Source: Gekko japonicus (lineage: Eukaryota). From it: a stretch of DNA of 64,000 bases. Positions within the stretch are counted from its first letter, which is position 1. Each line of letters starts with the position of its first letter. The stretch covers positions 962,205 to 1,026,204 of the forward strand of contig NW_015173679.1 of NCBI RefSeq assembly GCF_001447785.1, read 5' to 3'. The position numbers were made by a program, and so were the translations under genes. Of the stretch, positions 3,671 through 61,048 are shown one piece after another. Under the pieces are notes generated by a model. That model worked only from the letters and a program-made list of their open reading frames with translations. It was not told the DNA's origin and made no database searches.

Positions 3671-6600
3671 TCTTGGTTTCTATGGTGATGAGGGGACAGT
3701 CTCTGTAACATAAACATTGATAAGTACCTTTAACAACGTTTATTCTGACCTGCTTGGTTCTTACAGGTTGGTGCAAAAGGTTGCCAGCTCTGCCAGGCTC
3801 TTGGTTTCTATGGTGATGAGGAGACAGTCTCTGTAATCTATGTAATATAAACATTGATAAGTACTTTTAACAACGTTTATTCTGACCTGCTTGCTTCTTA
3901 CAGGTTGGTGCATAAGGTTGTAATTCTGGGTGGGTCTCCAGGCCCAATGTGGAGGTTGGCAACCCTGTACAGTAGCCGGAGTGTATGCAGCTCTCTGTGG
4001 TTGCACTCCTATGAACATTTTTTAAAAATTCAGGTAAAGCCATTTAAATGCAGGTAAAGTCAAAGTGTGTTGGAATCGTGTGTGTAAGAACTGTTAAAAG
4101 TCTGCATCTTCCAGGGTTTAACACAGAGAAGCTTAGCAGCACAACAGCTAAACAGGCCCAAGACATTTTGATCCCAGATAATGCTTGGGTGGGTTACAGC
4201 AAACTTAAAAATTTAACAAGTATGGGTCTAGCTAGTGTCTAGATAGGACACCTCCTGGGAACCTCTGCGTCATCAAGTTTGAACTCTTATCATAGATTCA
4301 GCATACAAATGTATTCAATAATAGTAAGTGGAACTTGGTCCATAAAGTTTTAATAGCAGCCTCTTCCAGTAATGAACAAGCCACAAGAAGTCCACTAGGC
4401 ACAATAGTTTTGCTTTTCAGTGGTTTTAGCTGGACTTAGCAGAACTTGCTGATAACTTGTCCTGTGAGCCAGATTTGACTGGCTCCCCAAAATACAGATT
4501 GCACAAAGGAGGCAGCTGCTTCAGTTGGTCTCATTGTAGGGTTTTCTCTGCATGAATGAAATTGCAGCTCTTAATAGTCCCCGTTGAATCAGATGTTGGA
4601 AGAGTTTATTAGTGGAAGCAGTTATCTCAGGCAACAGGTGGAGGCCTTTCCAGTACCTCCTATGGTGGAAGGGATGCTGTGTTTCAAAGGGTGCCATCCA
4701 CTTTGTTGCCATTTCCTCTGCTGCATTCACTTACAGCTACCATTCCCTCCCCTATGTCATGGGGCTTTCGTTACAGCTACCATTCCCTCCCCTATGTCAT
4801 CATGGGGCTTTCAAAAATATCTAGATCGCTATAGCATTATAACATTATGAGGATCAATCTGTGAAGTCTTTGGAATTCCCAACTTTGTTTTCTAAAATGC
4901 ATTTCTAGCCCTTTCCATTGCCAAGATCCACCTTTTCCCTTCTATCTCCAAAACAAAAAGGGGGTAGAGACTTTTTAAAATGCAAGCTGGGAATTCAGAG
5001 AACATAATGGTACATTTTTATAACATTGCAACATCATTGTGATCTAGATATTCTGATATTGCCATTTTTTTAAAAAAAGGCCCCTGGTGTTGGGTGGGAA
5101 TAGCAGCTGTGAAACAATGGGTCAGGAAAACTCACTTATCAGGACAAACCATTGATGCTGCACTGAATTGGCAAGTGCAATGGCAACAGGAAAACTACAG
5201 GGATTGTTGCTGTTTTGAAGACCCCCAACTTTCTGCGCACATAAACTATTCTGGTTGTATTTTGAGTGAGGTATAGCACCCTGGCAAACTAGATGTAATG
5301 TTTAGGGGAAATCGACAACTACATGAATTGAAGGTTCTTAGTAGTTATAGAGTATTCTACCAAATTAAAGCTTATGCTGAACATCTGTTTCTTTACCTTT
5401 TTCATGAATAAGGAACTACAGATTTTAAAAGTTCAGGATTTTTACAATATTGTATAGAATAATTAATCAGAAATATTATAATTCATATAGCCATTCTTAC
5501 GTATTCTCTCTATATAGCAGTATGACATTCATTTTTCTCCAATATTTTATGTCAAAAACATTTAGCATTGAAATCTGCCTTGAAGTAGGATCTGGATCTG
5601 GAGTAGTTTCAACTTTTGTGGCATCACTGATTGAATCCAAAGCTTTATACATGTAAGTATTATGCCATTTCATATTACTTAGGGCTAGGTGAAGAGTAGG
5701 ATGTATTTGTCTGCTTTAAGTCATATAAAATTACCTGTTTATTTGTAGTAGTGAAATAAACAGCTGTCCACTTTTCTTTCTTTGCTTCATATTCACTCTT
5801 ATTTAGTTGTGTAGCAGCCTCTGGAGCAAGGGCACAATTATGGCTAGCCAGCGCAGACAGCATGCAAAATCATGTTACAAGCCATGCTTTGCCAGCTCTA
5901 GTGTATAATTTTACTTTATCACTTTAGATAACCTGCTTCCTTAATTATGGTTTGACATGATCAATTGAACCGTTATATTGATTGGAAGCATACTCTTCTT
6001 TCATAAGGTTTGGTTAGTGGTGGTAAATGTGGTCACAACTGTGCTTTCTTTGCTTTAGTGGCAGATAGAACTCCCCTTAAAGCTATTTACCAGCTGTTTA
6101 GTTACAGTAACTAATGTATTGACTGTATTGGTACAACATAGCTTTGAGCAACATTCCTCATGTCTTTACTAGAAATACGCAGTATGCTATCATAGTTATG
6201 TTTCAGTTCTGGGTGTGGTGTTTGTAAACAGTATTCTAATACTTAAACTGGGTAAATAATAACATATTTGATTAGATTTTTATCACACCGCTCTTCCAAC
6301 AATTTAGGCCAGCCTGCGTGCGTTCTGCCCTTCTGCCATTTTTCACATTAAAAGGTAAGGCACAGGTTGCAATTCTAAGCACACTTACCAGAGAGTAAGT
6401 CCCACTGAACTTAATGGGATTTACTTCTCCATATACTTAGTTATTAAAACATTTATATCCCGCCTTTCTTCTTGGTGGCTTACAGTGTGCTTAGAATTGC
6501 ACTGTAAGTTTCCCAGTGCCCAAGATCCCCCAGTGAGCTTCATGGCACAGTAGGAATTTGAACCCATTATGTCTCTTTCTCAGTTTTATCCCCACTGTAA

Positions 6601-9600
6601 CCCTGCGAGGTAGGTCAGGCTTATCTAGTGAGTTCTATGGATGAACAGGAATTTGAAGCAGTGGCCCCGCAGTTGTTGTGTGACTTTACAACCACTGCAC
6701 CACACTGGCTGCATTGCCTAGGATTTTAGTAGGCAATGCAGCTTATAAGTACTTCGTATGTATCATATTGCCCATAAGGTCTGCTAAATGGCTAAATTTC
6801 TCTAGATGCATAAATGATAGAACATGTTAATTAAAATGTTACTCATTTTGTGCTTACAGATGTACTGATATCAACCCTGTGGCAGGTCTGTGCACAGTGG
6901 AGACAGCTATACGTAATAAGGTTGACATTCAACCCATAATTACTGATTTGGTGAGATTCAGATTATAACTGATCCATCTGATATGTCAGCCATTTTAGTG
7001 GGTTATTAAAGTTGTCTTATGATCACTGCAATTAAAAAGTTGCTGTTTCTGATAAATTTTAGCAAGCTCTTCAAGTTAGCTCAGATACTCTGCTTTTTCT
7101 AGTTAGTGATTTATTGTTGTCATAAACTCTTTCCTGACTTTCTTGTATATCCTGGGCCAGATTTAGTGGTGTTGGTAGCCTCTGGCTTTGGCAAGCAGTG
7201 GGGGCTGTCAGAAACAACAACTGTCACTTTGAGAAAGTCCCAGCAGGAGACCAAAAGAGCAGCAAAAAGGTTGTGCTAAACTTGGACAAAAGTTTATGCC
7301 ACAAGTAGTGTATAGTGTTGGTGTGACAGGAATGGGAAAGAGGCTGCTCTCTTGGCCCATGTTAGTTTTCTTTCCCATTGAAGAGACAGCCATTTGAATT
7401 GGGGCTTAGTATATTTTAATGGCAACTACTATACATCCTGTGTTAATGTCTAAGGGCTTATGAATTGTATTAACATTTTGTTTCACCTTGGGTAGAGTCC
7501 TACCACTCCGCTGGGCTTGGAACGACCATTGGTACTTACCCGTGAAGGGTCCTTCTCCTCTGAGGCTTGGAGGACATCTTGTGGGTGATTCCCATCCTTC
7601 TCTAGGGAGGCAGGACTAAGTTGAAACTTCTTCCTGTTTCCTTTGGAGGGAGTCACCCTAGCTCAGTTCGGTGCTCCGCAAGCAGTAAGCTACATAAAAA
7701 CTACACTTAGCAGAAATACAGTTAACAAGAACAGGAAGAATACCATAGAATTATGTAACTTGAACAGGAAAACAACCGAATCCATAAGAATAACATCTGT
7801 GTTCGGCTCTCTCTCTTTCCCGCNNNNNNNNNNNNNNNNNNNNNNNNNNNNNNNNNNNNNNNNNNNNNNNNNNNNNNNNNNNNNNNNNNNNNNNNNNNNN
7901 NNNNNNNNNNNNNNNNNNNNNNNNNNNNNNNNNNNNNNNNNNNNNNNNNNNNNNNNNNNNNNNNNNNNNNNNNNNNNNNNNNNNNNNNNNNNNNNNNNNN
8001 NNNNNNNNNNNNNNNNNNNNNNNNNNNNNNNNNNNNNNNNNNNNNNNNNNNNNNNNNNNNNNNNNNNNNNNNNNNNNNTCCCCTGTTTCAAAAATAGTAC
8101 ACCCCCCCCCCCCCCAAATCTGGAAGATGAGTTTTCTGTATTTGGGCTACACATGAGAAATTTTGACTCCCATTACATTTCATGTAATGAGATTTATGTG
8201 TGTCATTTAATGCAAAATGGAATTTGTTAAGGAATAAAAGGCATCTTTCTTTTATTTTGCTTCAACTTATGTCTAGGTAACAGGATTGTTGCCACGACTT
8301 CTTGGGAAAGTTGATTTGCTGCTGTTTAACCCACCTTATGTGGTAACTCCTTCTGTTGAGGTGAGACCATGTATTTAAGGAAGGCATTCATTGCATACTA
8401 GATACCAGCTGTTACACACAACATATGCAGTATTTCACTGTAGTTATCTGAAAATTTTAGGGTTTTTTTAAAAAAATGTTTTTATTAGTTTCAAAGAAAG
8501 GTACTACAGAGAGAGAAAAAGAAAAACAAAATAAGAAACAGAATAGAAAAATCTAACAGAATGGATACTATACTCATACATCAGTTTTGGTTACATTGTA
8601 CTTATAGAATCTAAGTCTTCTATGCAGTTGTCTGTAATTGTTTCACCTTGGGTAGAGTCCTACCACTCCGCTGGGCTTGGAACATTTATCTGGCAGATTT
8701 ATTTATTTATTTGGATTCTATGATAGTCTCACCCATTTTATTTCAAAGTTTCCTTTGAGAGCCAGTTTGGTGTAGTGGTTAAGTGCGCGGACTCTAATCT
8801 GGGAGAACTGGGTTTGATTCCCCACTCCTCCACTTGCACCTGGCTGGATGACCTTGGGCAAGCCGTAGTTCTGATAAGAGCTGTTCTTGAAAAAGAGCAG
8901 TTTCTGTCAAGAGCTATCTCAGCCCCACCTACCTCACAGGGTGTCTGTTGTGGGGAGGGGAAGGGAAAGGAGTTTGTAAGCCACTCTGAGACTCCTTTGG
9001 GTAGTGAAGGGCGGGGTATAAATCCAATCTCCTCTTCTTGTTTTTCATGTAATTGTAAAGTTAGTTTATCCATTTCTGCTGCGTTATCTGAAAATGTTGG
9101 TGAAGGTCTATGGAGGTTTTAATATTTACCAATTCACCTTCAGTCTCATACCTATTTTTATATTTAATAAGGTAATTTGTGAGGAATTCTTATTCTTAAT
9201 ATTAGTTAAGAATGTGTTTTCTGACACCTGCATCCTTATCCTAAAGCATGCTTGCTCAGAAGTACAGTCCTCCGATCTATGGGGCTTGCTCTCGAATAAG
9301 TGTGCTGCTAATTAAGGAGGATCCCTGTAGTAGCTGGTGGCATGTAGGACCTGTTGGGGAGGATCTAGTAGTAAATTTCCACTAATGAATTATGTGTGTT
9401 GCTGTGTGTGATTCCCCCCCCCAACTCTTTTCCTCCTATTGCAGGATCCCCCCAACCCAGTTTAACCCACATGCTGTTCCATAGGGTCCCCTATCCACCA
9501 GGAACAGGAAAGCAAGGAAGTCTCATTCCACATACAGAACTCCATTTTGCCAGTAGAAATTACTGCTGCATCCAACCCACTATTTAGTAAATGTGCTTAG

Positions 9601-12784: not shown

Positions 12785-12847
12785 TCAGAAGAAGGTCTCT
12801 CGACAAAGCGGACAGGTGGACTTGTTACTAGATGTAAACCACTTGTA
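12785..12847 (-). CDS. LTN1: LTN1 exon 30 (to stop)
   Basis: [20 protein letters not shown]. Confidence 0.96.
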
Positions 12848-20944: not shown

Positions 20945-23900
20945 ATTTTTAAAAAGGATTATGGTCTTGGTACTGTCTGCCCCCTTACTAAAAGTTGCAA
21001 TCCCTGGATATAAACTTTTATCTAAGTGGTGAGGATCTGTGAAAAAGAAGAGTTTGAGACTGCAACTAATGTCACTATGAGCACTGAATAAACATAAACT
21101 TAGAGAATCTTCCTGAGGGATATTCTTACAAATGCGCAAGTTTGGTGTAGTGGTTAAGTGCGTGGGCTCTAATCTGGGAGAACCAGGTTTGATTCCCCAC
21201 TTGTACCTGGCTGGATGACCTTGGGCAAGTCATAGTTCTGGCACAGCTGTCCTTGAAAAAGAGCAGTTTCTGTCAGCGCTCTCTCAGCCCCACCTACCTC
21301 ACAGGGTGTCTGTTGTGGGGAGAGGAGGGGAAGGGAAAGGAGTTTGTAAGCCACTCTGAGACTCCCTTGGGTAGTGAAGGGCAGGGTATAAATACAATCT
21401 CTTCTCTTCTTCTTCTATGTAAGGAGTTTTCCAGTGGGAAATGGGAAGGGACTGAAAACAACAGGAGAAAAACTGGAGGGATAGGCAGAATGAAAGGATG
21501 CTGAAACCATGCAAAGAATATCTCTAATTTAGGATCATGCATTACCCTAGAAGCATTGGCTATAGCTTGCACTACATCTCTAGTTGTGCAGTTTCAGTTT
21601 TATTTAAATTAAACAGATAGAAATATATATTATTAAAATAAATGACCTGGCACTGTAGACAGTGTGTCATGGATTCCATACTATGTCAGTTAGCACACTT
21701 GTCTTTTGCCACAAACTTACTTGTGATTTTTACCATCAAAGGTAAAAGTAAACTATGAATGCCTTCAGAAAAGAACTCCTGCCATTCACTTATGAGGTTT
21801 GCTGGAAGTTTTTCAATGATTTCTGGAGTTAATGCCTGGAAGTAGGCACTCAAGGCAGTAGTCAAGTCACAGCTCACACAGGCAAACACTTGTACCAGTG
21901 CAATAAAAAAGACTGCCTGGCTTTCACTTGTGGTCTGAAAAGAAAGGCAGACACAGACTTCTGTTCTTTTTCCATCCTGTTAATACCCAACCACACAATT
22001 GTTACCTCTATCATGTTATACATTCTTTTAGTTTATCATCTCAATCAAGCTCTTTTTTTCTTTTATGACAAATAAAAGCAATTTCTGTCTTTGAGTATAC
22101 TCAAAAGTCTTTAAAGCTTAAGTAATGCCTTAATGATTCTCATTCTGTATTGTTATCATCATCATATATTCTAATAGCAAAGTCAGCCAGATCATTGGAT
22201 ATCTAAATTCAGTGACTAGAGCTGTGAAGGAGCAAGAGATATCTTTCTCCAAACCTGAAAAGGGCCCCATGTTTGCAGGAAAATGTGAAATTAAAAATTT
22301 TTGGGGGGAATTTTAAAACCTGAAAACAATAACAGGAGCATTTGTAGCTTTAAGCAACAGATTCCCTCAATGGCTGGCGCTAGGCAACCACAGTATTCCA
22401 GCCATGGTCTGTCAGTAAAAGAGAGAGACCTTTCCAGGCCTATTTTGGCCTTTGAGGGAGGACTTATTGGGGCCAGGAGATTTAGTGGTTGAGTCTTTGG
22501 AGGGCAGGGTTTGGAGAGTGAAGAGGCCTCAGTCAGATATCATACCATACAATCCACTCTCCAAAGCAGTCATTTTCTCCAGGGGGACAGATCTCTGTCA
22601 TCTGGAGCTCAGTTGTAATTCTGGGAGATCTCCAGGTTAAGAGCTTAAGACAGAGGAGCAGATAAAGGTAGGCTGCCTGATGTGCAGGAAGGAGATAGGG
22701 TTGCCAGCTCCAGGTTAAGAAATTCCTAGAGAATTGGGGGGTGGAGCCTGGGGGGGTTGAGGAGGAGAGGGACCTCAGAAGGGTATAATGCCATTGATTT
22801 CACCTTCCAAAGCAGCCATTTCTTTCCTGGGAACTAGGGTTGCCAACCTCCAGGTGGGGGTTGGTGATCACCCAGAATTATAACTTCTCTCCAGATGACA
22901 GAGATCAATTCCCCGGAGAAAATAGACTCTATGGCATTACATCCTGCTGAGGTTGCTTCCCTCCCCAAGCCTTGCCCTCTCAAGGCTCCATCCCCAGATC
23001 TCGAGGAATTTCCCAACCTGGAGCTGGCAACCCTAAGGGGGAACTGATCTCTGTAGTTGGGAGATGTGTTGTGATTCCAGGAGATCTCTAGGCCGTACCT
23101 GGAGGCTGACAACCCTACAAGGAAAGCAGGAAGTAGAAAAAGGGGAAAGGCTATGGGGCTCTCAGAAAAGGGAANNNNNNNNNNNNNNNNGAAATGAGAT
23201 GCCTTCCGCAAATCCTTGCATGTTCCTACTTGAATATTCTAATTGCCAATTCGGCCAAACCTGAGGATACTTAAATCCAGTGACTGCAGCTGCTAACGGA
23301 CAAGACGTGTATTTCTACAAACCTGAAAAATGCCCCAGGTTTGCAAAAAAATCTGAAATCTTAAAAAAAAAAAAAAAACTACCACCACCCATGGGGGGGG
23401 GAGAAAAAGAAAATGATAACACAAACACATGTAGCTTTATGAAACGGAAGCCCTCAATGGCTGTTGCTATAGGCAACCACAGCAATCTGCTCCCGGTTCT
23501 CTGCTGCTTTCAGATCTTCCTGAGATTCCTGAATATATCTGTGATTTTCTTTGGATTTTTCTTCCAGTTTTCCCAAGAAAACTCAGATACATTTGGAAGC
23601 CATCCCAGCCAGGTTATATTTTCAGCTCGGGTATATCTGAATGCACATCCTTAGTAGCTTTTAAAAATGGATGCCCTCAGTGGCTGTTGCTAGGCAACCA
23701 CAACAGGCTTGGCTTCTGTTAGAAAAAAGCCACAAGGGCCCTTTCTAGGGTTGTTTGAAGAAGGACTCATTGGGGCCAGACCCAACATGACTCACCAAGG
23801 CTTGGATACCTGCCTGTCTAATAGCGGGCACAAAAGTCAGAGGACTCGATCGGGGCGCCTCGTATACGGCAGTAGAGAGTGGCAGCCCGGAGAGGGACCC

Positions 23901-29900: not shown

Positions 29901-32900
29901 ACATCCACACACTGCACATATAGCTAATATGTGATTTTGTCCCTGCCACCTCTTTTGAGACTAGAATAACGCTTCTCTTTCTAGCATTAAATTCACAATG
30001 ACAATTCCTGCTTTGTCAATGAGCCAACAGCAGACAGAGGGCTGGACCCAGCCAGCTTTTTCATTCAGTATCAACCAGTCCCCCCCGCCCCCCATCCAAC
30101 TATAACGCCTATGCAACAAGACTTTTGTACATCCAGGTACCATGATCCCCAGCACAGCCCTTTTTTTGGCGGTGAATGAGGAACCCCTTCTTCCTCTTTC
30201 ATCATCAGAAAAGCTGGTTGGATCCATCCCACAATAAGACTCTCCAAGAAATCAGAGCATACTACCTTTCTGTTGTATTGAAAAGGGCTTTTATCTCACA
30301 GGATGAAATATTCTTTGTATTTATCATTTTAGCCAAAGTTAAGGTCCAAAGTCTTCCACTCTCTTTTGATCTATGAAAGAACAGAAGGGTATCCATGATA
30401 CACCTGATTTGTTTAGGAAATAAAAAGATGTTCATTTCCATGAAGAATTCACAAGACAATAATATTTTGAAGATAAGGAAAATTATATCCAAAGAGGCAG
30501 AATGACAGAACTTCTACTAGAAAGCAACAAAAGCACAGGAATTAGACTATGTACTTACCTTTTAAATAAGATTTGTAATAGACAGGGAATATTACTAAGA
30601 GCACATAATTTCTCAGATGAAATATTCATTACTTCGAGCTTCTGAAGAAATTCAAGAAGCAGGCACGGTGGGTTTGCTAGTTCTTCAATCCATTGTAATG
30701 CATAAAGCTGTTCTGCAACTAAAGAAAAAAGTCAACAACATAAAGCATTCCATAGTAAACATTTGAAAAGGAATGAAATGCCCAGATGAAAATAATAATA
30801 ATAATACTTTCAATTTATTAATCGCTTTCCCCAGTGGGCTCAAAGCGATGTACAGTTACACATTAGACAGTGGACTAACAATGTTCAAAGGGGATAAGGA
30901 GGACAACATATATTCATTTTTAATTGCACACGCTGTCACTGCACGGTGGAAATGTCTTCTGGCTTGGCTCAGTCATTTTCCGAACGGCTGCTTGTTGACC
31001 AGGCTTCAGGACCCGTATGTCACATCGCCACAATACCACCGCCTGGCCGGAGACATCCACTGCAGGGATTTTTGTAGCCGAGAAGTTCTTTCGCCTTTTT
31101 CCGACCACGACCAGGAAGTCCCGACCGTCAGCTAACACCCTCCCACAAGGGAGATTGGTGTGCCCACCCTCTCTAAGGAGTGGTTCCCATTTTATCTACT
31201 CGCTGAAGCTTTTGAATCGCTGGGTGGATGAGCTGGGGACAACAGGCTGGCTGCTCACACCAGCGCAGGGCTTGAACTAACACAGTTCGGATGTTAAGAC
31301 AGTGGGATGTTAACAGTCACTAAGGAAAACTGGCAGTAGGTTACTACTGTTATAAATGTTATAAATGCTGTGTTGGATCCACTGACTACCTTGCCCCCAA
31401 GCTAGATCTGGACTGGTCTGGACCCTATAGATCCATTCTACTAGTGATAGTGCTTTCCTTTGGTACGAGGAACCTTCCCCTGATGCAAAAGGGTCTTCCT
31501 CTCACAAAGGTGAAGAGTATCTCTGTAGCAGAACAGCTCTGTGGGATCCAATCCAATGACTCCCCTTTTGCTAAGTCCTCTTCTTTCAAAGCAAAGGCAA
31601 AACAAAAGCAGAATGGAACCAATGGATCAAACCATAATGCTTTAGTCTCTAGCAGGACTTAGTTCACCAAGATCTTTACAGATAGAATTCCAACTGAGAC
31701 CAGCTGACATTCCCTTTTTCCTAGTTTTAAATTCAGGGTACCATTCAATGGGCCACACTGGTCTGCTTGTTGTTCACATAAACATTCTTATGCATGCAAA
31801 GTCTTCCCCATTCAATTCAACTGAGGAGGCAGATTTGGGTACAGAAAGCTCATATCTGTGCTGCCAATGAGCAGAATGTGCATGAGAAAGTTCTGTGTGA
31901 GCAGAAAAATACCCACAGTGCTTTAAGTCAGTCAGAGCTTCAAGAAACAGCAAGCTATAGAAAGCACAACATAAAAGTGGATTATTTTATCTAAAATTAT
32001 GCTTACCAATTCATAACTTTTAAAATGTTGGAGGCAGGACTCAGGCAACGCAGCCAGAGGATAGGGAGATCTTCTGTGTGACAGATCAGGGAGCCAACTG
32101 ATTTGGGAGCGTGTGGAATGTCCAGGAGAGTCCATAATCAAAACACAATTATATATAAGGAGAGATTACATTCTAGAGAAATAAAAAATCAAGGCTTAAC
32201 TTCCCAGTTTATACACAAAGCACCTTTGCCGCATACACCAGCATTAGCAGTGGTAACATGCCTCTGAGCAGTTACAAAATAATCTTGCTCACTTTAAAAA
32301 ACACAATTATATATAAGGAGAGATTACATTCTAGAGAAATAAAAAATCAAGGCTTAACTTCCCAGTTTATACACAAAGCACCTTTGCCGCATACACCAGC
32401 ATTAGCAGTGGTAACATGCCTCTGAGCAGTTACAAAATAATCTTGCTCACTTTAATGAGATTACAATGTACGTAAGTATTTACAAGATCAGACCATGGTA
32501 CAATTCCTTTTGAAAATCACAGTCAACTTCATTACAACACATTAAGAGGGTAAAAGACCCACACCAAGTTGATTTGGGGCATTTACAATACTTTATATAT
32601 TTGCAATTTCCCCAGCTAAATAACTTCCTTCTTTCTGAAAAGATGCTTTTGCAACATAAACACAGGTATACATAAAGCACACAGAAAAGTGCATCTACTA
32701 GAAACAACTATAATACTATTGTTTATTTAAAAGTACTGATCACTATGGTTATATCTAAAACTTAATTACTACAAACATGTTAGTATTTACAAAAGAATCT
32801 GTAAATGATAAATAAGAGAGGTAGAGTTTGTAAGAAGGGTGGAGATTTTTTCACTTCCACTCAGACCCAAGCTTGGGGGTCTGCCCCATCTTTCTGCTAC

Positions 32901-35900
32901 TATAGCTGCCTGATATCTCTGTTTGTGCTATAAGAACTGACTCCTTCCAAACTCCTGAAGGCCTTCACTCCAAGGCTGTTGACAGTGTGTCTGCAAATTA
33001 GGATTCTTGGCTATATCTGCAGAGAATATTACTGCCATTATGAAAAGCCTATCTGAGTTGGGGAGGTAAGAAAAAATGCTGTCCCCAATTAGGTAAAGGT
33101 ATAGCAGTAGCCCTTGATGAAGCTGTTAATGTGGAGCACAGAAGACCAGAAAAGGAGGTGGGGGGCAGTCTCTCCTTCCACTGCAAAGGACAAGGATTTC
33201 TTAATGTGCAAGGCCTATAACCTTTGAGGTAACTACACACCTTTCTTCAGTAATGGAGAACATGTAAATGTTTATATTTGAAATAAATATCCTGTGCAAT
33301 ATACATGTTTGCACTCTCCATATTCAAGTTTTCATCTCTTGCATAGATTTTTAGTTCACAGCACAAATTTTCTTTGGTAATGTGAGGACACACTGCACTG
33401 TATAAGTCAACTCTGTACCTCAGTAGATAGGGAATCCTGCATCTTTTCCCATTCACATTTGCTTGGGGTCAGCCATTCAATGTAGTCTTTCAAAATATAA
33501 GCAGAAACTTCATCAGCTTCCAACAGTTCAGTTAGCAAATCACTGACTGCAGAAATCAAAACCTGCAGACTGACATGAAAGGAAACCAGCATTTTACATG
33601 AAGAATAAAGCACAATAGCAAAATCTGTAGCAGCCTAAGGAAACAAGTCATAAGACTATGTAGCTACCTTTTAACATCCATCACAGATGACTGAAGCTGG
33701 TTCTTCACCCAGAATGCAGATCTCTGCAGGAAGGTGCTCTCTTTATGCATACCACCAGGCTGATGCACAAGTGATGTTAACCCACACATCCAAGTGTGCT
33801 TCAGCTTATTTACAAGGAAATCTACATCAATAAAAGAAAACAGCACAGTGCTTTAACTGCTGGACTACACTGAGAGTAATGCAAATGTTAATCTCTCTAC
33901 CTCAGCGCTATGATTAAGAACTGACTTGCTTTTGAAACGATTTTATGCTGTCCTTATGTCACCCCCAGTGTTTATATATCTTCTAAAAATCTGAGGGAGA
34001 ATCCCATGAGTGGGGAATGAAGCCAGAGCACTCTGGAGCAAGCAGGATGATGACTAACCAGGCCTTCCTTCTCCTGCCTGCTGGAGGAGGTGGAAGACGT
34101 AATCCCACATATTGGGCAACCCCCCCACCAAAGAAGCATCAATCAGCAGGATGATGACTAACCAGGCCTTCCTTTTCCTGCCTGCTGGAGGAGGTGGAAG
34201 AAGTAATCCCACATACTGGGCATCCCCCCACCAAAGAAGCGTCAATAAGCAGCTGACCTGGCTAAATGGAAATGTACCTGACAAATATGTTGTAGCCTGG
34301 CTTTTTGCACACAACTGAAAGATGGTGAACAACAAATCTTCTGATGATGGCATCAACAAGCATCCTTTAACTGAGCTAAAGAAGTTAGAGGCTACATCAC
34401 AGATGAATGACACAGATGGCTCAGCATTTCCAGCTTCTGAAAGATCCTTCGCTTTAGAAAGAGCCGCTTGAAGTTTGTCAATTATCCTTTTGACATAAAC
34501 TTCACCAATCAAGGACTCTATTGATAGAAAAGGACAGAGTATGTTAAATTGCTCTGTGATCAGTAAAAGCGCGGCATATCCTGTGCTCTGAACGTTCCAC
34601 CACATTCGTTAACTAGACCTGAAACAATCATGGATACCTCTTTTCAGTGAATCCAATGAGGCTACATTCCACATATTAGAAACCCCGGTCTTGACTGCTT
34701 ATTTTGACATTATCTTAGGTCTGGCTTAACAGTGTCAGTGTCTCACACTTCCTACCAATGCCTTGAAGTTTGTCAATTATCCTTTTGACATAAACTTCAC
34801 CAATCAAGGACTCTATTGATAGAAAAGGACAGAGTATGTTAAATTGCTCTGTGATCAGTAAAAGCGCTGCATATCCTGTGCTCTAAACGTTCCACCACAT
34901 TAGTTAACTAGACCTGAAACGATCATGGATACCTCTTTTCAGTGAATCTAATGAGGCTACATTCCACATATTAGAAACCCCGGTCTTGACTGCTTATTTT
35001 GACATTATCTTAGGTCTGGCTTAACAGTGTCAGTGTCTCACACTTCCTACCAATGCCAGGCCTGTGATATTAACACATTTATTATTTCAAAGAAACCTGT
35101 ACATTTTAATTCTAATTCATGTTTTTAATGTAATTTATTTATTCTATGTAATTTCAGGTTTTTATGTAAGCCATCCTAAGCGGTCCTCGTATTCATTTGG
35201 AAACAGGTGACCCTTAAATACATTCTGTTACATACACACACACACACGTAAATAAAATACTAAGCTCATTTTGGTCAGGCTAACTATGATCAAAAGATGG
35301 ACCCAGTTACTTGCATTGTAGCAGTAGTGAGAGATTTATTTATTCATTAATACACTGCCCTTCTCCCCATTAGGGATCCAAAGCAGCTCACACCATTCTT
35401 ATCTCCTCCATTTTATCCTCACAACAGCCCTTTGAGGTAGGTTAGGCTAAAAGGGTGTGACTGGCCCCAGGGTAAGCTGGCAAGCTTCCATGGCAGAGCA
35501 GAGATTCATACTATACCATACTGGCTCTTCCTCTGAAGAAAAGGCATCTTTGCTCACCCTTCAGTTGAGAGTGTCATGATGTATTCTTGCAACCAAGAAT
35601 TTTTTCAGGGCTCACAGGCACCTTTTTGGCCTAGGGACTGCCACAGAACACAAGCAAGCAGAAACATTCGCTTTTCTCTTGTGAATCTAGAGCCCCCCAA
35701 ATGTATCTCAGAAACTGAATAGGAAGGGAAACAGCCCTGAACCAGTGTCCTGTGTAGGCTTGCTTGCCCCATCAGATCTCCTCTGAAGCAGAGCATTCAG
35801 GTCCAGACAGTGAGGCTTGGGAGCATTGATACATGCAGGCAGCCGGGAGCTGGAACAGAAGGGAAGGAACTGGATGCTAGAACAGGAACCGGAAGCAAGA

Positions 35901-38900
35901 AGCTGGCACACAGGCTTGTGCCTAGGGGACTGGCTGATCCATCAAGGCAGCTTTCCCCTGCCTTGGCTGAAATAGGGTGGGATGTTATCAGGCTCAGCTG
36001 CCCTGCTGGCAGGTGTTGAGCTCCTGCAGCTGCACTGTGCATGGGCCAAGATCCTGCAAAAAAATTATTGTCCCCACTGTTTGGCTCTGGGATGGGGTTG
36101 CATGCAGCCAGTCGAGCACTTTGCCCCCACTTTGGGGCCACCTCGGTCTGGGCCTTCTGCCACCACCATTCCTGCAGAGTGAGAGCATCTTGCCCAGCAG
36201 AAGCCTGGTGGCTATTTCCAGGGCCAGTGGTGAGGCCTCCCTTGCAAACTCTGGCAAGATAGCTTCTGGTGCTGCAGGAGCCCTGTCAGGCCTCCATCAT
36301 GATAGGCTCTCCCTGGTCCTGCTTGTCCTCCTCAGCTGGTGGTCTTGGCTCCTCGGGCTCTTCCTCTTCCTCTGAGTCGCTGAGCTGGTTGGCGGGGGCC
36401 ACCATGGCAGTCAGGATTGCTTCCCTCCTTTAATAGTTCCCTTCCCATTCAGCTCCAGAGACTGCCCCAGGTTTTCTCCCTTCCCTTATTGTGGTGCAAG
36501 CAAAGCAGCCATTTTCATTTTGTGGCTGCCAGCTGTATACAGAAAAAAAGGTGGGAGATGGACCATATCTTCCTTCAAATGGATATTTTAGTGGGTAACT
36601 TACTAAACAGCTTAAATTCTAGTGTTAAGAGATCTGCCTTTTGGCAGTACTGTTAGAAGCCATCCAGGTTATTAGATTCAGATACTGGCTTGGCAACAAA
36701 CCTCAAATTGCAAAGATTTGCAACAGAGAAAATTCAGATGACACGACCTGTCTTAAAAGGGGGCATGATCACTACATAACAATTGTCTCTGTCTAGCAAT
36801 AAGCTTAAAAATCCAGAATGTAATCCATTCTGATCAGTGGGGCTTGAGCACACATTTTTCTAGACCAAACTTTTTATTTATTTATTTTTAAATAATGAAA
36901 ATAAAAAAGGAATCTTGTAGCACCTTAAATTTAGGCTTCAGTAAATTTGCTAGTCTTTAAGATACCAAAGAGCAGGGGTCATGTCATAGAAAAAGAGCTG
37001 CAGGAGCTCATTAGCATATGGTATGCTAATGAGCTACTAGGCTATTAGCATAAGAGCTCATTAGCATATGCAACGCCCCCTGACAACACCGGAAGTGGTG
37101 AAATAAAATACTAAGCTCATTTTGGTCAGTCTATGATCAAAAGATGGACCCATTGTAGCAGTAGTGAGAGATTTATTTATTCATTAATACACTGCCCTTC
37201 TCCCCATTAGGGATCCAAAGCAGCTCACACCATTCTTATCTCCTCCATTTTATCCTCACAACAGCCCTTTGAGGTAGGTTAGGCTAAAAGGGTGTGACTG
37301 GCCCCAGGGTAAGCTGGCAAGCTTCCATGGCAGAGCAGAGATTCATACTATACCATACTGGCTCTTCCTCTGAAGAAAAGGCATCTTTGCTCACCCTTCA
37401 GTTGAGAGTGTCATGATGTATTCTTGCAACCAAGAATTTTTTCAGGGCTCACAGGCACCTTTTTGGCCTAGGGACTGCCACAGAACACAAGCAAGCAGAA
37501 ACATTCGCTTTTCTCTTGTGAATCTAGAGCCCCCCAAATGTATCTCTGCTCCGGCCCGCTCTGGCCCCAAAAGACTCCTGCCAAAGAGTACTTTTTTTTC
37601 CTTCAACAAACTAACACAGTGCCACACTAGAAAAATGTTGGGCAGACTCGGAAATAGGACCATCCTTTGGGAAACAGCCCTGAACCAGTGTCCTGTGCTC
37701 TGTAGGCTTGCCCCATCAGATCTCCTCTGAAGCAGAGCATTCAGGTCCAGACAGTGAGGCTTGGGAGCATTGATACATATCAATAGAAAGACAATAACAT
37801 AGTCCAACAATAATATATTTAATGGTCCTTTTTGCCTTAGACTAACTGCAATTTTCAAAATAGACCCAGGAATCCCATGACACATATGGAGAAGCTGTAT
37901 ACACTAAGTTACATGTTTCTCCTCCATCTAGCTCCAGAATACCTTCAATACACACAGCTAAAGCAACACAATTTTATAAATGTGGGCTTTTGCACTTGTG
38001 TAAAACAAATAAGAAAACTTGCAATAGAACATATGTTAAGAGATTACCAAGCTGAATGCATGACATACCAGTCAACTGACAGGTCAAACACTGTCAATTG
38101 TCAATCAACTATTTGTTATTTGACTATAGTCACACATACAGGAGGTGGCGGATTTTACTGCTCTGTGACAGCCTTTCACACCATCTGGGGTACTGTTCCA
38201 GAAGGCTCCTGACCATCATGGAGGATGGGACCATCATGGGGGAAGCAGACGCCAAGTGTGACTGGAAGCAATTATTCCGGACTCAAACCAATATGTACCA
38301 AGTAAGAACAAAAAAGCTGACAATACCTTTTGAATTATTTGAAGGAGAATCTTCCACTTCAGATCCATCTAAAACCAGAGAAAGTTGAAATATTATGTAA
38401 CGTGGGGAGCCCTGCTCATTTCCTAGAGTGGCTTTGTTTAGGGACCTCTGTCACATAGACGTTCACATACATATGACCTCCAATCAGCACTCACCCCCAC
38501 AAATTCATAAGTAAATATACTGCAAGAGAAGCACAGCCACCCTTTTCTTAGCTTAGCTTCATAATTCTTCATGAGCCAACTGAGCCTCAGCAAACTGATG
38601 CTAGCTGGGGAAAGAGATTTGGACTCTTATTTATTTACCTCTATATTCTGGCCAGGAAATAAAACGCTGATGAGATTGCATTATGGACAGCTTCCCAGTT
38701 TATGAAGGTATGCTAAATGACTGGAATATTCTTTTGCTTAAAAAGTCGTCATCAGTAAGTTTGCAGAGGTGCCCCATATTAATTTGGGCACATACGCAGC
38801 ATTTCATGGCATACAGTGGATAGCTAGGGTGAGCTACTGTAAGAAATTTTTAAAACTAGTTAAAATCTAGTTTCAGGATTGCAGTAACGCTGCTCATTTT

Positions 38901-41900
38901 TAATACTAAATACTGAAACCATATAATCCCCATCAGAATTATCCAACACAATGTTGAAAGCCACAGACAAACATCAAACAAGCCAATTAACAATCCAAAC
39001 TACTAAACTAATCTTGCAAACTATCAGTCAACAAAATAAATATATGTAACCGAGATTTTGGATTTAGATATTTTGTTTATAAGACAACTGTACCTTTGTT
39101 AAATCATTGAGAATATTTTCTCTCTCTGTGGTGCTGCAGCAGCAATGGAGGACACTATACAAAATATCAACCAAAAAGTCTGTCTCTTTCCTCCAGTCTT
39201 CTTTCAGCCAATCTATTACATTTTCATACAGAAACTGGAGAGATGGATTTTCATACTGAGGTTTTATAGCATCTTGAATATTGCTCCTACTCTCTAGGAG
39301 TACTTGGAAAACTCTACTAGAGGCAAAGTTGCTGAGCAGAGCAGAGAGGAACTTCAAGTGCGGGTCAGATCTTTGATCACTGGTATAAACAATACTTAGT
39401 TCTGCAAGTGTACAAACTAGATCTTCCAAAGGTTCTTTCCTTAGAGGGGAAAGATGCTGTGCTTGAAAAATAATGCCAGGTTCATTACTACTTCCCACAT
39501 CCACATATGTCTCATTCTCAGTGCTGTTCTCAACTTCAGCTTCTTCTGAAAACCTGATCTTTACAGCTTTTCTTTTGTTTGGTTTCAACTTCTCTTCCGG
39601 GTTCTGAAGGACTTGTAGCAAACAGGACACAGCAGCCAAAGCTTTCTCATCCACATCTGTTCTGTCAACATGGACCACACAAACTTTAGAAAGTCCATCC
39701 CAAAAGTTCAACAACATTCTCTGAAAAGTGAGAGCTGTTTCTTCACAACTTGAATTTTCTCTTCTTGTTTCCCAAGAGCTTAAAAGGTCTGCTACCTCAT
39801 AAAACAAAGGTCCATTTTGTAACCTGGGCTCTTTAATCACCGTGTCTATGAGAGGAATTAGCTGTAAGGAGGAACACAAATTAGTTTTAACACTAAGCAG
39901 ACAATGGCTGTTTTTCATTAATTATTTCCTGTTACCAAAAAAAAAAAGTTTTCAGTTATATGCTCATGGACACTGGGAAAAAAAAAAAAGAGTATCTGGC
40001 CATTATTTTGGCTCAGATTGGGAAGAATTTCAGTATTCTTGTTTCCAAGGCAACCAGGCCAATGGCCCCACTCCTGCTATGCTGTAGCAGCACATGATTG
40101 ATCTGCCACAGTGTAGTGATGAAAGGCAGGGAGCAGCAGCAGCCCACTTCTTTCCTCCATATACCCCAACACCTATTCAGACCAAGGAAAACTGGTTCAC
40201 CGTTATTTCACCTCACTCTGACATTGTCACACAGTCTAATCAGCTACAGGACACTGTGACTTCCTTATGTTATATAATCTTTCATTTGTCAAGATCACGT
40301 AGCAGAGACAGAAGCCATAAAAATGGCATCAGTAACAGATTGGAATGTAGACAGGCACAGAAAACTGTGAATGTTCTGAAAGGTACTTTTCAGAGAACTG
40401 TCAGCTCACTCAAAGCCACACCTATTGCCCACCAGCTGTTCAGTGGTAAACATTTGTTATAATCCCAATTTGTTTAGTATATTCATATTTAATTGTAGGA
40501 ATGTTTCCTGTCACAACCTAGAGAAACAAAAATGATACAAACGATTCACATAACTTCTAACTCACTTTACCTGTTCTGGAATCTACTGTCTTGCCCTCAA
40601 CTTTCACACTGAAAATTAGCCAGCGCCAGCTAACTGCCTGGAAAATAACATTCAATGAATGAAGCTGAGTGAGAAGGAAAAGTTTCTCCAGGGCTTTCAA
40701 AGATTCCATGCTACTGACTCTCCATACACAAATAGCGTGTGTGCACACATACCAAGAAGGACACAGATTAAGCTTACACTACACCATCCCTTTGTTCCTT
40801 CCCATCCCATACCATCTCCAGTAAGTGCAGAAGGCTTCAGATGCAATAGCAGAGGGTACAGGGAGGAAGCAAGGGAGCTATGAAAGGCAGCTAGGAGAGT
40901 TCTTCCTCTTCTCCATCAACTGCCAATTTAATGAACGAATGCAATACACAGCTGGCATTGGGATCTCAATTCAAAATTGGTAAGTTTAGTTAAAGTAACT
41001 AAAAATAATCAAAACTCAATGGTATTTTGAGAACCTCATCATAAATACCTGATCACTTATAAGCATTTCTTGAATTTTAATGTCTTCTTCTTCTTCACCT
41101 ATGTTCTGCAATATGGTAAATCGCAAACATTCCATAAATGCCGATGAGATTGCAGAGCACTCTGAACGGCTAGTTGTAGCTCTTTCAGTCAACATGCTAG
41201 GCAAGCACAAAATTCAGAAACAGAATGAACTGCATTACTGACTTCATATTAAAGTATCAATGTTTAAAATGTAACTACTGATTTTACAAAGCACTACAAT
41301 ACTAATTAGAAATTAAGTATGGAAAAGTAACAATGTAGTTAACAGTATAAAAGGTAAAGGTTCCCTTGCTCGAAAGCCAGTCAAATCCAACTCTAGGATT
41401 GCAGTGCTCATCTCTATTTCAAAGCCGAAGAGCCACTGCTGTCCGAAGACGTTTCCGTGGTCATGTGGCCGGCATGACTAAACACCAAGGCGCATGGAAC
41501 GCTGTTACCTTCCCACTGAAGTGGTACCTATTTATCTACTTGCAATTTCTTGCTTTCGAACTGCTAGGTTGGCAGGAAGTTAACAGTATACGGAAATGTA
41601 AACTCTGAAACCCAGATTAGAAAAACTAAAACAGCAAACTTAAAAAAAAAAATCATCAAGACACTACGACTGACAGATACATGATATTTTAAACACTGAG
41701 GTTTGACACCTGCAGTTTTTTACATGGTTTAAATACTGTGTTCATTATTATTTCCAGACACAGAGATAAAGCAATTCTTTAAATGAATAACCAGAAATAG
41801 TTGTTCATACCCTTGAATTATGAAGGTGAAAAAGGTTCTACAAAAGTCCAGCTTTGGTTCAGTAACGTCAAGAGGTACCTTGCTAATGAAAGGTAACAGA

Positions 41901-57123: not shown

Positions 57124-59293
<2,170 letters not shown>

Positions 59294-59973: not shown

Positions 59974-60546
59974 TTCTAAGAGCCATACATCGGAAACTGA
60001 TTTGTTTCCAAGTGCAATTCGAAGTGCTGATTTTGACTTTTAAAACCCTGAGCAGTCTGGGATATCTGGAATACCACCTTCTTCTTTATCTGAATCAGAA
60101 GTGCTTCTGTTGTTCCCACATCCATAAGACATGAAGCACATGAAGATTATTGAGAAAGCTTTTTTAGTTGCAGTGTACACCTATAGAATGTCCTCTCCAA
60201 AGAGGATTGCTTGGAAAGTTTACTAATGGTTTAAGATGTCAAACAATTATCCTTTTGTTCTTTTCTGGGGTTTTTTGGTTGATTTTAAAATATTGTTTAA
60301 TTCTTCTAGTTATTTGATATTGAATTTATATTCACTGCTGTTTTACTTTGATTATTATTATTTATTTATTTTACATTCTGATGGTTAACTGTTTTGGACA
60401 GTTTTAATATGAAAACTCACAGAATTCCCACAAAAGGGTATCTGCATTCCAATCCCATGCATATTTATTCAGTAATAAAACTCTTTGTGTCCAGTAGGGT
60501 ACCCTTGCACAGCTTTGTAGCATTAATTATATATCAAGTCTTTCCT

Positions 60547-61048
60547 CTTGACAGCATAATAAAAAGTAGAGACATCACCCTGCCAACAAAAGTCTGTATG
60601 GTCAAAGCAGTGGTATTCCCAGTAGTACTGCATAACTGCGAGAGTTGGACTTTAAGGAAGGCTGAGCGCCAAATAATTGATTCTTTTGACTTATGGTGCT
60701 GGAGAAGACTCTTGAGAGTCCCCTGGACTGCAAGATCAAATCAGTCAATCCTAAAAGAAATCAACCCTGACTGTTCTCTGGAAGGCCAGATACTGAAGCT
60801 GAAGCTCAAATACTTTGGCCACCAAATGAGAAGGGAGAACTCATTGGAGAAGACCCTGATGCTGGGAAAGATTGAAGGTCAAAGAAGAAGGGGACAGCAA
60901 AGGATGAAACGGTTAGACAGTGTTATCGAGGCAACAAACATGAAATTAAGCAAATTCCAGAGCACGACAGAAGACAGGAGGGCCTGGCGTGATGTGATCC
61001 ATGGGGTCGCGAAGAGTTGGACTCGACTGTGCGACTGAACAATGACTA
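60547..61048 (+). mobile_element. 5'-truncated RTE-BovB LINE
   Basis: Same BovB 3' protein segment as the copy at 228-1044; degenerate TSD caagtctttcct / caagccttccct. Confidence 0.92.

Follow-up and report, generated by a model that had tools for sequence, protein, structure and literature searches.

LTN1 in the window and the coding sequence it lacks

The 64-kb stretch of Gekko japonicus DNA analysed here (the window) contains a gene for listerin, LTN1, and raises the question of whether this gene has truly lost coding exons or has been wrongly assembled. LTN1 extends over positions 12785–53139 of the minus strand, where 28 coding exons are present, amounting to 4894 nt including the stop codon. 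All 28 exons have GT-AG ends, and none contains an internal stop or a frameshift. The exon at 39861–39094 (minus strand) was 100% identical to the RefSeq listerin of G. japonicus (P0001, 1660 aa) and 96% identical to that of Gekko kuhli (P0002, 1763 aa). Pfam analysis of P0001 and P0002 detected an N-terminal Ltn1 domain, HEAT repeats, a UBC/RWD-like domain and a C-terminal RING, and the exons coding for the listerin domains were located within the window. With all listerin Pfam domains represented, the gecko gene is the ortholog of the gene for LTN1/listerin, an essential E3 ligase that acts in ribosome-associated quality control.

In its 28 exons the assembled copy is 96–98% identical to G. 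kuhli listerin, while it lacks the segments corresponding to G. kuhli residues 712–775 and 958–1024. These match exons 12 and 16, respectively, in the numbering of a preliminary description of the locus, which is followed here. An uninterrupted LTN1 frame of about 1765 codons was not found, and was restored only by adding both missing exons: the 4894 nt present, plus 193 and 202 nt, make up 1763 codons, the normal length of LTN1. Human LTN1 has 30 exons, a number that the 28 present plus the two missing exons would fit. The homologue set used for LTN1 comparisons comprised 120 listed of 191 matches.

Exon 12 is absent from the interval between exons 11 and 13

Exon 11 (38327–38368, minus strand; 42 nt, 14 codons) has its GT donor in phase 0, while exon 13 (34278–34517, minus strand; 240 nt), which is preceded by AG, needs to be entered in phase 1. 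This clash had been pointed out in the preliminary description and was confirmed: with the donor at 38327 and the acceptor at 34517, splicing exon 11 directly to exon 13 would terminate the frame at codon 714, two codons past the junction. The interval separating the two exons (34518–38326, minus strand) has 3809 bp and is, as described earlier, free of N; the only N runs in the 64-kb window lie at 7824–8078 and 23175–23190. By comparison with G. kuhli the exon expected here has 193 nt (64 codons plus 1 nt), close to the intervening peptide of about 63 aa originally anticipated.

The earlier failure to recognise any segment coding for exon 12 in this interval was reproduced in homology searches. 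Residues 717–767 of G. kuhli listerin had no tblastn match in the window, while the same search with the whole of P0002 still detected the 14-codon exon 11 (E = 0.003). A tblastn of exon 12 against the window, which the preliminary description had suggested, was run with the corresponding segments of the homologues (at least 40 aa) and a word size of 2; no credible match was found inside the interval, the best one (E = 0.012) lying outside it. An exon-12 profile searched against the six frames of the window gave a best E value of 0.32, and its one match inside the interval was on the wrong strand (E = 0.6). A divergent exon 12 that had simply been missed was rejected on the basis of these tblastn and profile searches. 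A scan of the interval for stop-free exons flanked by AG and GT and leading from phase 0 to phase 1 returned three candidates, none of them LTN1-like. A wrongly placed acceptor for exon 13 was also rejected, since its phase is backed by a genomic exon-12 fragment from another species and by all homologues.

The exon-12 segment was kept in 109 of the 113 homologues that span its flanks (among the 120 listed of 191 matches). The exceptions were P0001, one bird model and two coelacanth proteins with a 31-residue match; the five other aligned gecko proteins kept both the exon-12 and the exon-16 segments. A search among shorter proteins (42 matches of 1177 candidates) revealed no G. japonicus fragment joining exons 11, 12 and 13, which is weak evidence. 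A short-protein search for the exon-12 peptide matched one of 104 candidates; its identity to G. kuhli was only 81%, indicating that it does not come from G. japonicus. At the level of literature listings on LTN1 in geckos and reptiles, no report of exon loss in a reptile LTN1 was found.

Exon 16 is also missing

The other LTN1 exons had been considered intact. This did not hold, since tblastn and profile searches showed exon 16 to be missing as well. Exon 15 (33419–33569, minus strand; 151 nt) ends in phase 0 and exon 17 (30559–30718, minus strand; 160 nt) starts in phase 1, the same clash as between exons 11 and 13, and direct splicing would reach a stop 14 codons on. The interval between them (30719–33418, minus strand; 2700 bp) is N-free, and the exon expected in it has 202 nt (67 codons plus 1 nt). 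The best tblastn match of the exon-16 segment in the window (E = 0.019) lay outside this interval; one 24-residue match within the interval was on the wrong strand (E = 0.057). The best E value in a profile search of the window was 0.58, and the scan for stop-free replacement exons flanked by AG and GT, phase 0 to 1, returned no candidate between exons 15 and 17. The segment was kept in 109 of the 112 homologues spanning its flanks (among the 120 listed of 191), the exceptions being P0001 and two short camel models.

The RefSeq model and the splice sites available for rescue

In P0001, the place of the first gap is taken by 28 nt of read-through into intron 11 (38326–38299), followed by a duplicated start of exon 13 (34812–34756) used as an extra exon. 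The presence in P0001 of this intron-11 read-through and repeated exon-13 start indicates that the sequence of the window itself served for the prediction of the protein. Compared with normal listerin, P0001 has intron read-through and a repeated exon-13 start in place of the missing segments. The residues that patch the exon-12 gap are likely spurious, and the RefSeq model would be a patch over probable assembly errors.

Splice sites were scored with matrices trained on the true sites of the gene itself (27 acceptors), a training that favours those sites; true acceptors scored 6.4–19.2 bits and true donors 4.8–12.2 bits. The preliminary description had proposed that an acceptor 2 nt downstream of that of exon 13 (34515) would restore the frame. 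On paper it does, but it scored −0.3 bits and leaves the clash between exons 15 and 17 unsolved. The alternative donor of the RefSeq model (38299), 28 nt into intron 11, is in frame and scored 3.3 bits. The exon-16 clash needs a rescue of its own, for which the best acceptor (30707) scored 5.9 bits. The out-of-frame ancestral sites are still strong (11.1, 11.7 and 7.4 bits), so most transcripts would be truncated.

Local duplications lie in the two exon-less intervals

A duplication of about 600 bp, already noted for the exon-12 interval, was verified, with copy A at 37101–37778 and copy B at 35250–35834. Their aligned parts (35250–35709 with 37101–37546, and 35726–35834 with 37669–37778) include blocks of 396 and 73 bp without substitutions; there are five indels, and the copies differ mainly by indels. 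Further, a 295-bp tandem duplication that had been overlooked provides an extra copy (34762–35056, minus strand) of the intron end, an acceptor (34812) and the first 51 nt of exon 13; the pair differs at five positions in 295, all of them intronic. The exon-16 interval contains a tandem duplication of two 158-bp units (32140–32455) that is exact, with no differences. The duplication junctions lie at 34761/34762 for the 295-bp pair and at 32297/32298 for the 158-bp pair.

With cut-offs of at least 100 bp, at least 94% identity and a distance within 3 kb, which were chosen after the data had been seen, all four local duplications in the 64-kb window fell in the two intervals that lack an exon, leaving the other 25 introns with none. 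Counted as three events, such clustering would have a chance of about 0.001 relative to the window and of 0.006 relative to the LTN1 intron space, values that depend on these post hoc cut-offs. With looser cut-offs (at least 50 bp and at least 90% identity), four of eight duplication pairs were in the two intervals. Near-identical adjacent copies, a hallmark of false duplication, are found at the lesions; a gap in the assembly, which would also be expected between the copies or next to them, is lacking, there being no N in either interval. The exact 158-bp pair and the substitution-free blocks of the 600-bp pair seem too alike for old paralogs, and their likeness is what would be expected of alleles or re-used reads.

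A 104-bp tandem pair (93.6% identity) was observed at 34041–34252, right behind exon 13, at a place from which no exon is missing. Its unit is single in P0124, a genomic ORF of a related animal, and the pair could either have arisen by a real duplication in recent times or be one more false copy. Between the 600-bp copies lies a unique stretch of 1.3 kb (35835–37100) that is GC-richer at one end and has three long open frames, for which no Pfam match was found; it is possibly a mobile-element fragment. A 23-nt hairpin is located at 37022–37068.

Conservation of the remaining exons and neighbouring features

Against G. kuhli listerin, identity amounted to 96.3% in the part before the first break, 98.3% in the part between the two and 97.4% in the part beyond the second. 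Amino-acid changes specific to the window affected 10 of the 711 residues that precede the first break and 9 of the 915 that follow it (Fisher p = 0.49), with no indication of relaxation; the changes specific to G. kuhli were similar in number (12 before and 9 after). Stops, frameshifts, broken splice sites and relaxed conservation, the signs of a pseudogene or null allele, were all absent from the 28 exons. Decay of a pseudogene was accordingly rejected, the exons being stop-free, canonical and conserved. This lack of decay argues against an old null allele, while a very recent one would be compatible with it.

An RWDD2B-like gene (57130–59293, minus strand) lies upstream of LTN1. Its four coding segments cover a 300-aa homologue almost fully (residues 1–94 and 102–299 were matched), with no large piece missing. 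One RWDD2B intron contains an inverted repeat (57581–57723) with 61-nt arms, 97% complementary, and a 21-nt loop. At the other end of the window, near the N run at 7824–8078, a short frame (5429–5653, plus strand) presumably resembles an exon of the N6AMT1 methyltransferase; it had no Pfam match at E 0.05. A diverged 154-bp tandem repeat of about six units is present at 1603–2467. Two LINE-like 3′ fragments that are about 91% identical to each other (387–1031 and 60382–61035, plus strand), with open frames of about 215 aa, show what we take to be a likeness to RTE/BovB.

Mis-assembly as the most likely origin of the two losses

Judged from the sequence, the absence of exons 12 and 16 is very probably a mis-assembly and not a real change in the gene (probability about 0.93). 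The preliminary description had left the choice between these two possibilities; mis-assembly is now well supported, while real loss is not. That one gene should have lost two exons independently, with a clash of phase 0 against phase 1 at both sites, speaks for mis-assembly. It is also favoured by the duplications in both lesions, the 28 intact and conserved exons, the homologues that keep the two segments, and the lethality of LTN1 knockout, described as embryonic in mice (PMC7641731).

The most likely cause of the absence of the two exons is the false closure of two gaps by a short-read assembler. Contigs would have broken at heterozygous indels or repeats near exons 12 and 16, and local gap filling may then have closed both gaps by using flank reads or reads of the other haplotype. 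At each gap the flank would in this way appear twice and the unique stretch with the exon be lost, without an N to mark the place. The gap-filling step is suggested by the anatomy of the intervals and by documented short-read assembly cases. The window appears to come from the 2015 draft genome of G. japonicus, whose oddities P0001 reproduces. The description of that draft names Illumina reads as the input and SOAPdenovo (29-mers), SSPACE and a local gap-filling step as the means of assembly, with a contig N50 of 21 kb (PMC4673495). Short-read vertebrate assemblies are documented to contain erroneous tandem copies next to gaps in which exons were lost (PMC5632298, PMC9516828), and falsely filled gaps without N have been described (PMC9516828). 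The gecko case has in common with those reported (PMC5632298, PMC9516828) the missing exons next to near-identical flank copies, the partial exon copy taken into an NCBI gene model, and the N-less joins after wrong gap filling, which in the gecko is presumed. However, proof in those cases came from long reads and depth, while the gecko case is judged from sequence anatomy, and the gecko LTN1 region is not GC-rich, unlike the regions reported there (PMC5632298, PMC9516828). Indeed, the usual signs of a gap or of GC dropout are missing, both intervals being N-free with an ordinary GC content (38–45%). The five differences in the 295-bp pair, and the 104-bp pair that adjoins exon 13 without any exon loss, also count against mis-assembly, and real rearrangements based on replication can likewise produce small indels in clusters.

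The N-free intervals would also suit a real, rare null allele, produced by duplication-deletion rearrangements in the sequenced animal, whose haplotype the assembly would show while the other allele is intact. The five differences in the 295-bp pair and the clustered small indels of the 600-bp pair could then be real, and a heterozygous LTN1 null would be tolerated, to judge from the recessive phenotype in mice. Such an allele is nevertheless improbable: two distinct events on the kilobase scale would have had to hit one allele, whose 4.9 kb of coding sequence show neither a point lesion nor an excess of amino-acid changes. Even less likely is a true loss of exons 12 and 16, with a shorter in-frame listerin made through cryptic sites 34515 or 38299 plus 30707. 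It is just as doubtful that such a protein, with some 130 residues of the HEAT-repeat arm gone, would still span the 60S subunit. In-frame cryptic sites do exist on paper, and the remaining exons are conserved, as would be the case for a working gene. However, the cryptic sites all score below the ranges of the true sites (with self-trained matrices), the ancestral out-of-frame sites have kept their strength, and the congener G. kuhli retains both exons. A true loss would moreover leave the confinement of exact duplications to two intervals unexplained.

Two exon losses would be harmless if this were a second copy disabled not long ago and an intact LTN1 existed at another place in the genome. 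This is the least probable of the alternatives, since the gene adjoins RWDD2B, which we take to be the usual neighbour of LTN1, a single G. japonicus LTN1 was found among the 120 matches listed of 191, and the LTN1 exons show no decay.

Under the mis-assembly reading, the LTN1 gene of the living G. japonicus is predicted to be normal and to have 30 exons. A later PacBio/Hi-C assembly of the species exists, and the main text of its report does not name LTN1 (PMC10776941). A true loss would offer a natural test of how much of the HEAT arm of listerin is dispensable. If, as is far more probable, the losses are assembly errors, their significance would be limited to curation: the RefSeq listerin of G. 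japonicus (P0001) would contain spurious residues and lack about 130 real ones, and even N-free sequence in the G. japonicus draft would not be trustworthy for claims of exon loss.
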